Positions 8,591-61,279 of a DNA stretch of 64,000 nt are shown one piece after another. Every line of letters begins with the position of its first letter. Within the stretch, counting starts at the first letter, position 1. Made by a program: the position numbers and the translations under genes. The stretch is taken from the NCBI GenBank assembly GCA_951406725.2, contig OX597818.1, positions 100,812,001-100,876,000 of the forward strand. Reading direction: 5' to 3'. This DNA comes from Octopus vulgaris (Eukaryota). Under the pieces are notes generated by a model that saw only the letters and a program-made list of their open reading frames with translations, was not told the origin of the DNA and did not search any database.

Positions 8591-8637
<47 letters not shown>

Positions 8638-8796
8638 GGAAAAAAGCAACAAGAATGGATTAAAATCTCGGTACGATCGTTTCGTACGAGGACATCTTTA
8701 ATAAGCTACAAAAAATGCAGTGAATACAGATGGCTCGTACTCGTCAGCCGAAAAAATATCAGAGAATTCCCAAACATCAAAAGGGGTAGATACAAA

Positions 8797-8797
<1 letters not shown>
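8638..8797 (-). mobile_element. Solo PLE terminal repeat (pLTR) fragment inside (TA)n
   Basis: Diverged homologue of 57191-57350 and 59985-60132; (TA)n on both sides. Confidence 0.8.
8667..8752 (-). ncRNA. Type I hammerhead ribozyme, intact core
   Basis: Minus: TTCGG-CTGACGA-GTACGAG...CTCGTAC-GAAA-CGATCG-TA-CCGAG. Confidence 0.85.
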
Positions 8798-20599: not shown

Positions 20600-20860
20600 A
20601 AACAGTACTCTGCTTTTCCTTTTTTTGAATTATGATATGCGTTTGGTAGAATGTTTCTTGTCACAAATATTTGGGACCTCGAAGATGGTAATATTAAATT
20701 TGATTTAAGTTGGGACTTCATTAGATACGGCTGCAGACTTTGCTGCCTGAAGCTATTTGAAATTTTATGGAGATCTAATAAGGAAATTCTGCTAAATAAT
20801 AAACTAGACCTTCGCCTTTTCTGTATATATAAGGCTACCTGGACGTTCAAGTACTTTAAG
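20600..20860 (+). pseudogene. PLE endonuclease C-terminal fragment
   Basis: IWDLEDGNIKFDLSWDFI...GCRLCCLKLFEIL...ILLNNK..C, the same CxLC...LLN motif as 58440-58570 (-). Confidence 0.7.
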
Positions 20861-52442: not shown

Positions 52443-52674
52443 CTATTTCTTTACTACCCACAAAGGGGCTAAATACAGAGAGGACAAACAAGGTCAGACA
52501 AACGGATCAAGTCGATTACATCGACCCCAGTGCGTAACTTGTACTTAATTTATCGACCTCGAAAGGATGAAAGGCAAAGTCGACCTCGGCGGAATTTGAA
52601 TTCAGAACGTAACAGCAGACGAAATACGGCTACGCATTTCGCTCGGCGTGCTAACATTTCTGCCAGCTCACCGC
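52443..52674 (-). mobile_element. SINE family D
   Basis: Matches 20996-21231 and 55374-55605. Confidence 0.9.
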
Positions 52675-55371: not shown

Positions 55372-55606
55372 ATATTTCTTTATTGCCCACAAGGGGCTAA
55401 ACATAGAGGGGACAAATAAGGACAGACAAAGGGATAAAGTCGATTACATCGACACCAGTGCGTAACTGGTACTTAATTTATCGACCATGAAAGGATGAAA
55501 GGCAAAGTCGACTTCGACGGAATTTGAACTCACAACGTAATGGCAGACGAAATACGACTACGCATTTCGCCCGGCGTGCTAACGTTTCTGCCAGCTCGCC
55601 GCCTTG
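55372..55606 (-). mobile_element. SINE family D, young copy
   Basis: Perfect 14-bp TSD GTAAAGCATTATAT at 55358-55371 and 55607-55620. Confidence 0.93.
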
Positions 55607-56008: not shown

Positions 56009-56102
56009 CCTTTACTCTCGACACATGTTTCGAAGACAGCATATTTTCATTCCGAAGGAATAAAGGGTGCATTATGCAATCTTCTCATCAGGAAAGAAAA
56101 GG
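56009..56102 (-). ncRNA. Type I hammerhead ribozyme, intact core
   Basis: Minus: CCTTTTCTTTC-CTGATGA-GAAGA...TCTTC-GAAA-CATGTG-TC-GAGAGTAAAGG (GUC cleavage triplet). Confidence 0.85.
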
Positions 56103-57140: not shown

Positions 57141-57194
<54 letters not shown>

Positions 57195-57222
57195 AGAAAA
57201 AAACAACAAAAATAGATCAATA

Positions 57223-57312
57223 TTTCGGTACAATTGTTTCGTACAAAGACCACCTTTATTAAGGCTGCAAATATTGCAGCAAATACACGTGACCCGTACT
57301 CATCAGCCGAAA
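57223..57312 (-). ncRNA. Type I hammerhead ribozyme in the pLTR
   Basis: Minus: TTTCGG-CTGATGA-GTAC...GTAC-GAAA-CAATTG-TA-CCGAAA. Confidence 0.9.
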
Positions 57313-58429
57313 AAACATTTGAGTTCTCAAAACATCTAATGGGGTGAGGCTACACTCATGAAACATCAGGGATAGTTCTATAAAAATCAGATTTAGATAA
57401 TAATCGGACTTCCAAAATTCTTTAATGTTGCACAGTCAAATAACAGGCTTTAAAATAGTATTTTAAAAAACCTCTTAATTTCACAGAAATTGAAAATGTA
57501 AATCCATCCATAATAGGTTTGAATTCTGGAGATATGAGGAGAGATTTCATACTCACAGACGATGTATTTATCCATAATTAGTTCATAATAAAGTGGGTTT
57601 CCTGATGTATGATGGTATGCTGGTTGCATTTCTGATAATTTCTCAAAACTGCTATGTTAGAATTAACTGAAAGAAAATTTAGTGGAGCGTAGAGACAATC
57701 ACTCACATAGGGTATAATAGGGGTAACTGAGAGGAAGTGGGGTTGTAAATATCCAACTACGCAGAATAGTTTATTTCAGTGGAGACAAACTGACTGGGTC
57801 AGAATTTGTAAGAATCTCAGTGTTTTAAAAAGGAATGCTAATCTTGACCAGTATTATGTTGTTAATTGCTATATAAAGAGGACACGGGAAGGTAAAGGCA
57901 GGTCAAAGTTTGTCAATATGGGAATGAGCATTAACAGATTTCAGTGCAACACTAGAAAGGGGGTCATTCAATTTATTTCTTTATTTATTAATGTTACTAC
58001 TTATACATTGGTAGACTTTGGGACTACATTTAGGGGTCAAAAGAAAGAATTGGGAGTATTGTTTTTCATAATGAAAAATCGTTATATTATTTCTATGGGA
58101 TTAGCTTTAATTTACTTATAGTATATAAAATAATTACGAAGTTTTATTAACTTATTTGCTTTAAGTTGTTTTACCTAAATTAGAAAATATTTAGATTAAA
58201 TTAATTTAAATTATTTATATAGTCTATGAGAATGAAATTTTTTTAGCAACTAATTTATTTATTTATGTTCCAAATCTGGTTCATTTAGAGAGAAAATAAC
58301 CATAGCTTATGAGCTTGCAGCTATCTATTTAAAGTATATAATATATAAGAGTATTGCTTTATTATTATAATAAGCAAGATAGACAAATCACAAAATGGTT
58401 TTATATACGGTTATCATTTAAAATATTTT

Positions 58430-59865
58430 AGAGTCTTAATTCTAGCGTGAATACAAGATCTACCCAATTCTATACGGTTATTCAATAAGTCATCATTTCT
58501 TCTGTGCATTAGTATTTCAATTGTTTCCATGGAGCAAAGTTGGCAACCAACTCTGTTATTTTTATAAGGTATCGCTCTTCTAACTAATTTCCAGAATTAA
58601 TTTGAATCTACTCTGAATATCCGATAGAATCGCACAGTTGAAAGGAACATTAAGCCACATTATATCTTTCTTATTAAATTTCGTTGAATTAGAATTGCGG
58701 TTAGTTGAATCATTCCTACTCCCACCAGAGTCGTTGTATTTATTAATCTTTCTATTTGCATGCTTCTTAGTTTTATCTAAATTTATCCTCTCCGAGTTAT
58801 CTATGTTCTGGTCTATGTTCCTATCTTTATTTTTATTTTCATTTAGATTTGTTGTCACCGTAAATTTACTTCTATTTTTATTTCTGGCGTTATCTCTATT
58901 GTTGTTTACGTGGTTATTGTTACTTCTTTTATTAGAAATATGTAAGTTCTCTTTATCAATAAAGGTAATTTTTTGGTTGTATCCTGCCTTAGATAACACC
59001 GCATTATAATGCTCCGAATGGGAGTTAAATATATCAAAATTGGATGATAATTTAGAGATTCTTAAAGAAATATTTCTTATCAAAGTATTAATTATATTTG
59101 GGGGATGATTGGATAATTTATTTACGTAACTAGTGATTTCGCCTTCTTTTCTAAATGGGTAATGTAGCTTAGAGTTAAGGTCTAATGTAATATCAAGGAA
59201 ATTTACTATTTTAGTGCCTGGTTCGTAGGTTATGCTAAGGTTGAAATATTTAAAGAACCTATTAATTTTCTTTCTAATCCTTTCAATGCTTGATTTATTA
59301 TTGCTAGGGATAACAAACAAAGCAGCATCCCTATATAGACCACCTTGTAATTCTGGGATCTCCTTTTTTTATGCATTTTAATAGATATGCGCCTACTAAA
59401 TTAGTCACCTCAGCCGAATCACTGGAACCCATGGGTATATCGAAATTATTAGGGGTGTCTGCTCTGGTTCATAATTTTCCCCCAAACTCTATAAAAGTTT
59501 TTCTAGCTAATAGTACCACGTCGATTTCTTCTCTAGATATGAGGGAGCGATTCATAGCGAATATAAGTGATTTATTTAACAGAATAGGGGAAATGATAGA
59601 GTAATAGTTATTTATGTCGAATTGAATAAAGGCCAGATTATTAGTATTGGTTAGGGAGTTAAACCATTTTAATACCTCATCGGCATTTATCCATAGACTT
59701 AAGGGAAGAAGCGGGGTTATTTGGGGTAGAACAATGTCAAGGGTAGATTTACTAAGTCGGCCAATATCTGACTTAGTTGGACAAATAAGCCTTACCGACG
59801 GGTTTTCCATAAAATTCCTTTTGTGGTCCTTAAGGTTAATTCTAGGTTCACACGGTATAAGCGGT
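58430..59865 (-). pseudogene. PLE reverse transcriptase plus partial GIY-YIG endonuclease (possibly Naiad-like)
   Basis: LKDHK.NF..NPSVRLICPTKSDIGR, FIQFDINNYY, FDIPMGSSDSAEV, GLYRDA (YxDD mutated), VNFLDITLDL, SNHPP, then PYKNNRVGCQLCSME...LLNNRIE...CIH. One TGA, a frameshift at ~59365, and the EN core is deleted. Confidence 0.92.
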
Positions 59866-60011
59866 TCTGTTTAAAGCCTGTTATTTGACTGTGCAACTTT
59901 AAAGAACTTTGGAAGTACGTTTATTATGTAAATCTTATTTTTATAGAACTATCCCTGATGTTTCATGAGTGTAGCCTCACCCCCTTAGATGTTTTGATAA
60001 CTCAGATGTTT

Positions 60012-60101
60012 TTTCGGCTGATGAGTACGAGTCACGTGTATTTGCTGCAATATTTGCAGCCTTAATAAAAGTGGTCTTTGTACGAAACAATTGTACCGAA
60101 A
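60012..60101 (+). ncRNA. Type I hammerhead ribozyme in the inverted pLTR
   Basis: TTTCGG-CTGATGA-GTAC...GTAC-GAAA-CAATTG-TA-CCGAAA. Confidence 0.9.
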
Positions 60102-60246
60102 TATTGATCTATTTTTGTTGCTTTTTTCCTGTTTATAATCACCCCGCATTATCTTATGGTTAATACCATATAGAGTTCTGGTGCATTTAAGTTAAGTACC
60201 TCATTTATGTGAATTCAACAGAACTCACTTGAATTTTAATTGCTTT

Positions 60247-60343
<97 letters not shown>

Positions 60344-60615: not shown

Positions 60616-60683
60616 TGATAAAACGGTAAGATAACAAAAGAAAGAAAGAGACCTCAATATTATGTAAATAGAGGAAATTTATC

Positions 60684-60889
60684 TATACAATATGTTACAT
60701 TACTCGGTAGTCAAGATAAAACTCTGAGTTTCAGATGCCGAAGTGGAAATCCACAACACCATCTCTTCGGTTATCTGGCTATTTGAAAACGTTTTCAAAT
60801 AGCCAGATAACCGAAGAGATGGTGTTGTGGATTTCCACTTCGGCATCTGAAACTCAGAGTTTTATCTTGACTACCGAGTAATGTAACAT

Positions 60890-60897
<8 letters not shown>
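60684..60897. repeat. 214-bp perfect palindrome with a hammerhead-like motif in each arm
   Basis: 107-bp arms centred on AAAAC|GTTTT (60790/60791) with no mismatch seen. Plus arm: AGATAA-CCGAAGA-GATG..CATC-T-GAAA-CTCAGAG-TT-TTATCT. Confidence 0.95.
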
Positions 60898-60955
<58 letters not shown>

Positions 60956-61279
60956 TTAGAGACAAAACCACTATTTTGCAAAACAAACAAGGAAAGACTT
61001 AATCAATACATAAAATTTTAATAAAAAGTCAATATATATAAATATTTATGTTTATGTGTTTTAATGTGTGTGTATATGTAGGTATGTATATATGCACGAG
61101 TCAATAAATTAAAGGTAAGAGGCATTCAATACTTTTAGTTGGAGTTGCATTTACTATTATCTAAAACAGATTGATTCGGCTGCAACCACAGAACCGAGTA
61201 AAACAGTTTTAGACCTCTGGTAATAGGATACTGTCCAATATCCCCGAATCAATCAGAGTGAGACTGATGTTTCTGAGAA

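Follow-up and report, generated by a model that had tools for sequence, protein, structure and literature searches.

Penelope-like elements (PLEs) of the Hydra clade, as defined by Craig et al. in 2021 (PMC8557442), encode a reverse transcriptase (RT) with DKT and RWK motifs, a CxCx5C linker and, C-terminally, a GIY-YIG endonuclease with CxxC and CxH motifs; inverted 5'-truncated copies are described in the same report. Dimeric action is described for PLE hammerhead ribozymes that are minimal or have a palindromic stem III (Cervera and de la Pena 2014, PMC4209133; review PMC6765202), and pairs of hammerhead motifs on opposite strands were reported in the 2014 study (PMC4209133). In the work of Frangieh et al. 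in 2024 on an Anolis element (PMC11167929), PLE hammerheads showed weak cleavage and were not required for insertion in vitro. The present analysis concerns a PLE of Octopus vulgaris contained in a stretch of 64,000 nt (contig OX597818.1, positions 100,812,001 to 100,876,000, forward strand), hereafter the window, to which all coordinates refer, and its relatives in the same genome and among metagenome sequences.

The locus is a dead, internally deleted Hydra-clade PLE with the usual inverted second copy, in itself an ordinary dead copy, and both the element and its hammerhead are of known kinds. On balance we favor the reading that each of its pseudo-long terminal repeats (pseudo-LTRs) carries a predicted dimer-type hammerhead whose 59-nt, unbranched stem II encloses a likely polyadenylation (poly(A)) signal. 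The link between a poly(A) signal and a PLE hammerhead is the new point here; literature searches that did not extend to Lunse 2017 or to the supplements for Cervera 2014, Frangieh 2024 and the Li 2026 preprint listed no paper on either such a signal or a long stem II at PLE hammerheads. The features of the locus are as follows:

57144..57190, no strand: (TA)n microsatellite target of the left flank, read from the sequence, with a 4-nt overlap with the element end
57187..57454, minus strand: left arm, the 3' end (pseudo-LTR) of the main copy
57223..57312, minus strand: left type I hammerhead, with stem I at 57312-57307/57228-57223, CUGAUGA at 57306-57300, stem II at 57299-57241, GAAA at 57240-57237, palindromic CAAUUG at 57236-57231 and the predicted cut at 57229/57228
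57255..57260, minus strand: AAUAAA in the 3' strand of the left stem II, a likely poly(A) signal, with the predicted cut 26 nt past its end
57455..58416, minus strand: 3' untranslated region of the main copy
58417..58596, minus strand: segment matched by tblastn with the intact relative L041
58588..59870, minus strand: 5'-truncated, broken RT, with a stop at 59471-59469, a frameshift near 59365 and YRDA at 59335-59324
59870..60137, plus strand: right arm, the inverted 5'-truncated second copy (pseudo-LTR)
60012..60101, plus strand: right type I hammerhead, with CUGAUGA at 60018-60024, stem II at 60025-60083, GAAA at 60084-60087, CAAUUG at 60088-60093 and the predicted cut at 60095/60096
60064..60069, plus strand: AAUAAA in the 3' strand of the right stem II, a likely poly(A) signal
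60110..60135, plus strand: U/GU-rich box UUGUUGCU, kept across subfamilies, a candidate for the downstream element of a poly(A) site or for a protein-binding site
60138..60249, plus strand: element-derived 'tail' of 112 nt, representing the beginning of the 5' region in the next unit, then (TA)n

The inverted arms are 268 nt long each and 95% complementary, with 14 differences, none of which falls in the ribozyme core. Read outward, each arm is ordered as stem I (6 bp), CUGAUGA, the 59-nt spacer, GAAA, CAAUUG, UA and stem I, and the core (CUGANGA, GAAA, UH, stems I-III, open at stem I) is that of a type I hammerhead; a non-circularly permuted hammerhead was rejected for this motif, its strand order being the ordinary one. 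A first-pass annotation of this DNA had proposed two outward-facing, inverted pseudo-LTR hammerheads with CUGAUGA, GAAA, GUA, CAAUUG and a 6-bp stem I, and these were found in both arms, with the two predicted cuts falling at the positions it had given. Its assignment to the PLE pseudo-LTR hammerheads with self-complementary stem III was also borne out, and all stem III variants observed (CAAUUG, CGAUCG, CGAUUG, CAUAUG, CACGUG and CCAUGG) remain self-complementary. The computed energy of stem III was -6.4 kcal/mol for the intermolecular duplex versus +2.4 kcal/mol for the monomer hairpin, and a self-complementary stem III with such a predicted unstable hairpin fits the dimer model. Type I topology, an unstable palindromic stem III and pairs on opposite strands are thus shared with minimal dimer-type PLE hammerheads (PMC4209133, PMC6765202); however, helix II of the latter has at most 7-8 bp, and no link to polyadenylation is described in the parts of the 2014 report considered here (PMC4209133). 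Rfam gave no hammerhead match in the window at E<=10, a failure not specific to the long stem, since a motif with a 14-nt spacer in L141 was likewise missed at E<=0.1.

Within the 59-nt spacer, 51 nt lie inside the first 4 bp, close to the 50 nt or so given earlier for the region enclosed by stem II. Both the GGGUCAC/GUGGUCU helix and the GCUGCAA/UUGCAGC hairpin proposed then are present in the minimum free energy (MFE) fold, but the description of stem II as branched did not hold: in both arms, the MFE fold as well as each of the 15 suboptimal folds listed is a single nested hairpin, and the MFE structure of all 11 inserts folded is an unbranched hairpin with internal loops and bulges. Fold z values were -3.7 and -3.1 for the two spacers of the window and ranged from -2.0 to -5.1 in nine of the 11 inserts (-1.2 and -1.7 in the other two). 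Nor is the long stem family-specific, as had been suggested, because at least 19 subfamily clusters within a single lineage have it, as do other lineages of the genome. That it is under structural constraint is supported by covariation across subfamilies. Among 11 subfamily copies, 88.6% of the cells pair and 9 of 24 pairs changed on both sides; two-sided changes were located twice in the basal helix, twice in the terminal hairpin and never in the 3-pair middle helix. A tree-aware simulation on the 19 clusters, in which as many changes as were observed are distributed over the tree and the pairs are taken from the fold of the window, gave P=0.012 for the paired fraction of the terminal hairpin, 0.016 for the basal helix and 0.0005 for both. 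We infer that selection on the structure operated in source elements that were active, not in this copy.

Searches with an exact pattern that requires C after the cut, thereby omitting families H and I and decayed copies, found 200 motifs with spacers of 5-13 nt, 3,230 with 14-44 nt, 14,499 with 45-74 nt and 285 with 75-104 nt, versus 41, 136, 130 and 162, respectively, for reversed-pattern controls. Stem II measures 57-60 nt in subfamilies A-G, 51 nt in D, 53-54 nt in H, 55 nt in I and 43 nt in J. Metagenome relatives of Hydra type, which were retrieved with an alignment query after a first scan with a single protein query had returned nothing, served as outgroups: the motif was present at 58 of 78 loci and 50 of 51 distinct inserts had 10-25 nt, a doubtful 64-nt insert (L330) being counted among the 51. 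The stem II region of 51-65 nt also contrasts with the 10-25 nt of published Hydra motifs, read by eye from File S2 of Craig 2021 (PMC8557442). Among the Hydra relatives sampled, the long stem is restricted to lineages of this genome, and about 80% of the motifs recovered there by the present pattern escape searches with short-spacer descriptors, such as the 7-17 nt core search described in Craig 2021.

These length data bear on an explanation that we consider quite improbable, namely that hairpin duplications during reverse transcription lengthened stem II in this lineage of animals and that the expansion is tolerated rather than useful, selection only keeping the pairing needed for core folding. 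Spacers of 14 to 70 nt do coexist in the genome, the abundant family D (51 nt) resembles a 10-nt-shorter form of the 60-61-nt type (L181/L183), and the inserts of lineages H, I and J differ in sequence from those of A-G. However, all outgroup inserts but the one just mentioned stay at 25 nt or less, lengths cluster at 51-65 nt across RTs as little as 48-65% identical, and the hexamer pattern described below would be left unexplained.

The hexamer AAUAAA or AUUAAA, which the first-pass annotation missed, lies inside stem II in 18 of the 19 subfamily clusters of the window's lineage (13 AATAAA and 5 ATTAAA; the last cluster has GATAAA), 8-14 nt before GAAA. The clusters had been picked by insert length and downstream box, the hexamer not being a criterion, and ATTAAA occurs in two separate branches of the lineage. 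Genome-wide, 15,301 sites carry a hexamer in stem II, versus 921 in the control. Canonical metazoan poly(A) sites have a U/GU-rich element 30-60 nt downstream of AAUAAA or AUUAAA. The hexamer of the right arm and its U/GU-rich box match this layout, which is conserved in 18 of the 19 clusters. Among the outgroups, 15 of 35 families have a hexamer between positions -3 and +17 of the cut, compared with 1 of 35 for the antisense strand, 2 of 220 among background windows and, in shuffles, a mean of 2.4 and a maximum of 9. AATAAA (8) and ATTAAA (6) are the commonest hexamers of this interval in 34 families, and TATAAA is absent from it. The latter count weakens a very improbable proposal in which the hexamer acts as DNA, as a TATA-like element of an internal promoter. 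Pseudo-LTRs of PLEs are described as containing a promoter (Craig 2021, PMC8557442), and in family D and L172/L204 the homologous position is occupied by TATAAA; yet AATAAA and ATTAAA lead in the interval, and a separate TATA-like run is seen by eye 35-50 nt past the cut in the outgroups. A conserved GCTC...GAGCAC hairpin follows a TATA-like run in most outgroup Hydra families, 40-75 nt past the cut (L289-L366, by eye).

Families H and I have the long stem and still carry AATAAA or AGTAAA after the cut, while in families A-G and D the hexamer is inside stem II and absent after the cut. Relocation of the hexamer is limited to one lineage. Over 35 long-stem families, the hexamer was found in stem II in 9, downstream in 6, in neither place in 20 and in both in none.

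Several observations weigh against the reading of the hexamer as a relocated poly(A) signal. Cleavage and the poly(A) site are both predicted and neither was observed, and a pattern search for A-tailed retrocopies of the family returned none (two unrelated matches, with two in the control). Expansion is independent of the hexamer, because 20 of the 35 long-stem families have it in neither place and H and I keep it downstream; the signal thus does not explain the expansion. A test of hexamer conservation by alignment column gave P=0.998, the hexamer being two columns out of register between groups, and since it is partly base-paired, pairing may account for some of its conservation. The outgroup interval was set after inspection of the data and the DNA is AT-rich, the outgroup families have unknown hosts and are not fully independent, and the sample behind the exclusion of both places (0 of 35) is too small for significance. 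Insertions also show no excess of 5' junctions at the cut (4, versus 8, 10 and 10 at neighboring positions, with 1,799 intact). Contigs of putative RNA runs contain the family; among the rows listed, loose ends at the pseudo-LTR end and at the tail end are (TA)n and none is a poly(A) end, which speaks neither for nor against the reading because contigs cannot show transcript ends.

It is possible, although unlikely, that the long stem II is instead a selected docking or protein-binding platform, making a tertiary contact with stem I or serving as a site for the element's RT-endonuclease, which would make the ribozyme a protein-assisted one, with the hexamer as part of the contact and not as a poly(A) signal. 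The succession of helix, internal loop and hairpin and the length of 51-65 nt are maintained across subfamilies, and the Anolis PLE hammerhead is described as cleaving only with its protein (Frangieh 2024, PMC11167929). Short loop-II motifs of the genome are also A-rich (AAAUA, CAAUA), and the AAUAAA of family D is predicted to form a bulge adjoining the 4-bp basal stem. Against such a platform, the hexamer is located either in stem II or 3' of the cut, and the 5 to 14 nt that separate it from the core show a variation that a fixed contact would not permit; enrichment concerns precisely the words AATAAA and ATTAAA; and inspection of alignments A1 and A2 by eye revealed no conserved partner for a pseudoknot. 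Pseudoknot pairing of the hexamer with the strand that follows stem I was rejected, as it fits family B by eye and not A, B2 or C.

If the hexamer is a poly(A) signal, its relocation would make polyadenylation and cleavage alternatives. A more tentative extension is that the hammerhead of Hydra-clade PLEs is coupled to a poly(A) signal and that the octopod lineage moved this signal into the enlarged stem II, creating an either/or switch. Under the favored reading, little cleavage would be expected of a monomer, and pairing between two copies would occur via the palindromic stem III. When the 3'-end machinery of the host reads the hexamer, the transcript would be polyadenylated within the ribozyme core, giving an mRNA without ribozyme. 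The alternative would be read-through, with the hairpin partly hiding the signal and the ribozyme able to fold; in the extended view, the read-through RNA could then dimerize, cleave or serve as insertion template. In the outgroup layout, the cut would strip off the poly(A) signal and the tail. Insertions contain sequence past the cut, often the tail too; this, together with the lack of junction excess, suggests that their template is uncut read-through RNA, which would also be unpolyadenylated. Such a template would agree with the in vitro result reported for the Anolis element (PMC11167929). It appears more likely, then, that the ribozyme acts on the RNA level of the element.

Two known systems offer functional analogies without homology. 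The hammerhead in the 3' untranslated region of Clec2 cuts between stop codon and poly(A) signal and lowers expression (review PMC6765202), which resembles the outgroup layout. In HIV-1, the polyA hairpin holds AAUAAA at both ends of the repeated unit (PMC2645353), which resembles the layout here, as does the partial hiding of the signal by that hairpin. Unlike in both cases, ribozyme and signal overlap within one fold in the octopus element.

Assignment to the Hydra clade relied mainly on relatives in the genome (2.8 Gb; 2,412 candidates for the arm, of which 40 were scored). Intact relatives have open frames of 842-1091 aa, and L041, L042, L044 and L050 carry a GIY-YIG endonuclease C-terminal to the RT, of which the window copy keeps the C-terminal 60 aa; the Naiad clade was rejected, the endonuclease being C-terminal and not N-terminal. 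Pfam gave no significant match for the window fragments or the intact open reading frames (ORFs). All four intact relatives have PADKTG (DKG to DKT), with RWR or RWK in families B and C and RWA in D, a region truncated away in the window copy. The CxCx5C linker reads CNCRIKSKC or CNCRCASEC in the relatives, and the C-terminal CQLC and CIH, corresponding to CxxC and CxH, are retained in the window. Its RT is dead as had been stated, with a TGA stop, a one-base frameshift and YRDA at the positions listed above. The loss of about 0.9-1 kb through an internal deletion at 58588-58600 had been overlooked; it removed the linker and the GIY-YIG core and joins, on the minus strand, the truncated RT to the last 60 residues of the endonuclease. 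The 112-nt tail sequence, likewise overlooked, recurs in other copies as well as directly upstream of intact ORFs, and precedes the ORF in full-length relatives.

The elements share with the Hydra PLEs of Craig 2021 (PMC8557442) an ORF with C-terminal endonuclease (EN+) bearing DKT, RWK and CxCx5C, the (TA)n target (present on both window flanks and at many other loci), a type I hammerhead near the 3' end with a short self-complementary stem III and a variable first stem II pair, and an inverted 5'-truncated second copy plus tail. Besides the length of stem II, they differ from the elements described there by their ORFs of 842-1091 aa with Asn-rich inserts (about 700 aa in that report), by a hexamer preceding the cut, and by RTs forming a separate clade with Argonauta proteins; they are also longer than the '<3 kb' given as typical for the clade. 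In the RT tree, 14 sequences from the genome grouped with Argonauta and four unnamed proteins with a support of 1.0, apart from 34 metagenome relatives; four of 18 own loci had no usable segment and were left out, and no published Hydra protein or other PLE clade was included. Argonauta hians was the only species-named source of homologues among the 120 matches listed. The ORFs of L041, L042 and L044 owe their 980-1091 aa to long Asn-rich insertions (about 700 aa in metagenome relatives), and the many copies of these types with open frames indicate that the lineage was recently active. A decayed C terminus of a Hydra-type endonuclease also lies at 20624-20860 (plus strand) of the window.

The special meaning once attached to two intact outward cores beside a dead RT found no support, as pairs are common and core decay is indistinguishable from neutral. 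Among the first 100 motifs listed, out of 1,799, of sister family C, 58 make up 29 pairs that face outward within 7 kb, and motifs lie close together in no other orientation. The core is kept in 28 of 30 copies of the window's family, where private substitutions per site amounted to 0.008 for the core and 0.016 for the upstream part, a non-significant difference (p=0.28), these 30 being the best-scoring, hence least decayed, of the 2,412 candidates. Selection on the cores of this copy was accordingly rejected, and the expected chance of two untouched cores is 0.3-0.6 at 2-5% decay. With outward pairs usual and core decay near neutral, intact cores beside a dead RT need no selection. Their location on opposite strands means that the two ribozymes cannot dimerize within a single transcript; a transcript spanning both arms has a computed duplex energy of about -400 kcal/mol and would, at this locus, bury the ribozyme in a 268-bp duplex.

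Other hammerheads were encountered in the window and elsewhere. A third long-stem motif, from a short truncated copy of family H, lies at 56015-56096 (minus strand), with a 53-nt stem II and AGUAAA after the cut; its element has 3,212 candidates in the genome, and relatives sit behind a Hydra-type endonuclease. At 8619-8797 (minus strand), a solo pseudo-LTR fragment of the young family B (98.9% to L042) holds an intact hammerhead with AUUAAA in stem II. Positions 60939-61032 are 97% identical to an arm of a small palindromic element in L112 with two outward hammerheads of 16-nt spacer. A palindromic mini-element of about 395 bp with two outward long-stem hammerheads of family I (L123:1380-1850, G000:C6:134017265-134017659) appears to be copied as a fixed unit, because most of 40 scored loci show the same paired matches. 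Tandem, retrozyme-like arrays of about 534, 594 and 545 bp (L186-L188, L182 and L150-L152) have a stem II of 50, 70 and 25 nt, respectively, and no hexamer in it. The 'HHR_half_core' ends of Naiad_Hpol and Naiad_Smim (Craig 2021 File S5, by eye) resemble non-circularly permuted hammerheads in which loop II contains the cut site. The main text of the octopus repeat paper PMC13282606 contains neither 'hammerhead' nor 'ribozyme'. Further repeats of the window are a direct repeat of 212 nt (52463-52674 and 55391-55602, 90% identity, 2.9 kb apart) and a near-perfect palindrome of 228 bp (60677-60904) whose two strands both exceed the gathering score of the Rfam mir-9 model, in all likelihood only because the sequence is a perfect hairpin.

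A poly(A) signal beside the cut, as in many Hydra families, or inside the ribozyme, as here, points to control of mRNA 3' ends and not to shaping of the insertion template. If this is true, a single RNA fold would act as a switch between stable mRNA and read-through RNA, and the 14,000 or so such units across the genome could also terminate host transcripts.
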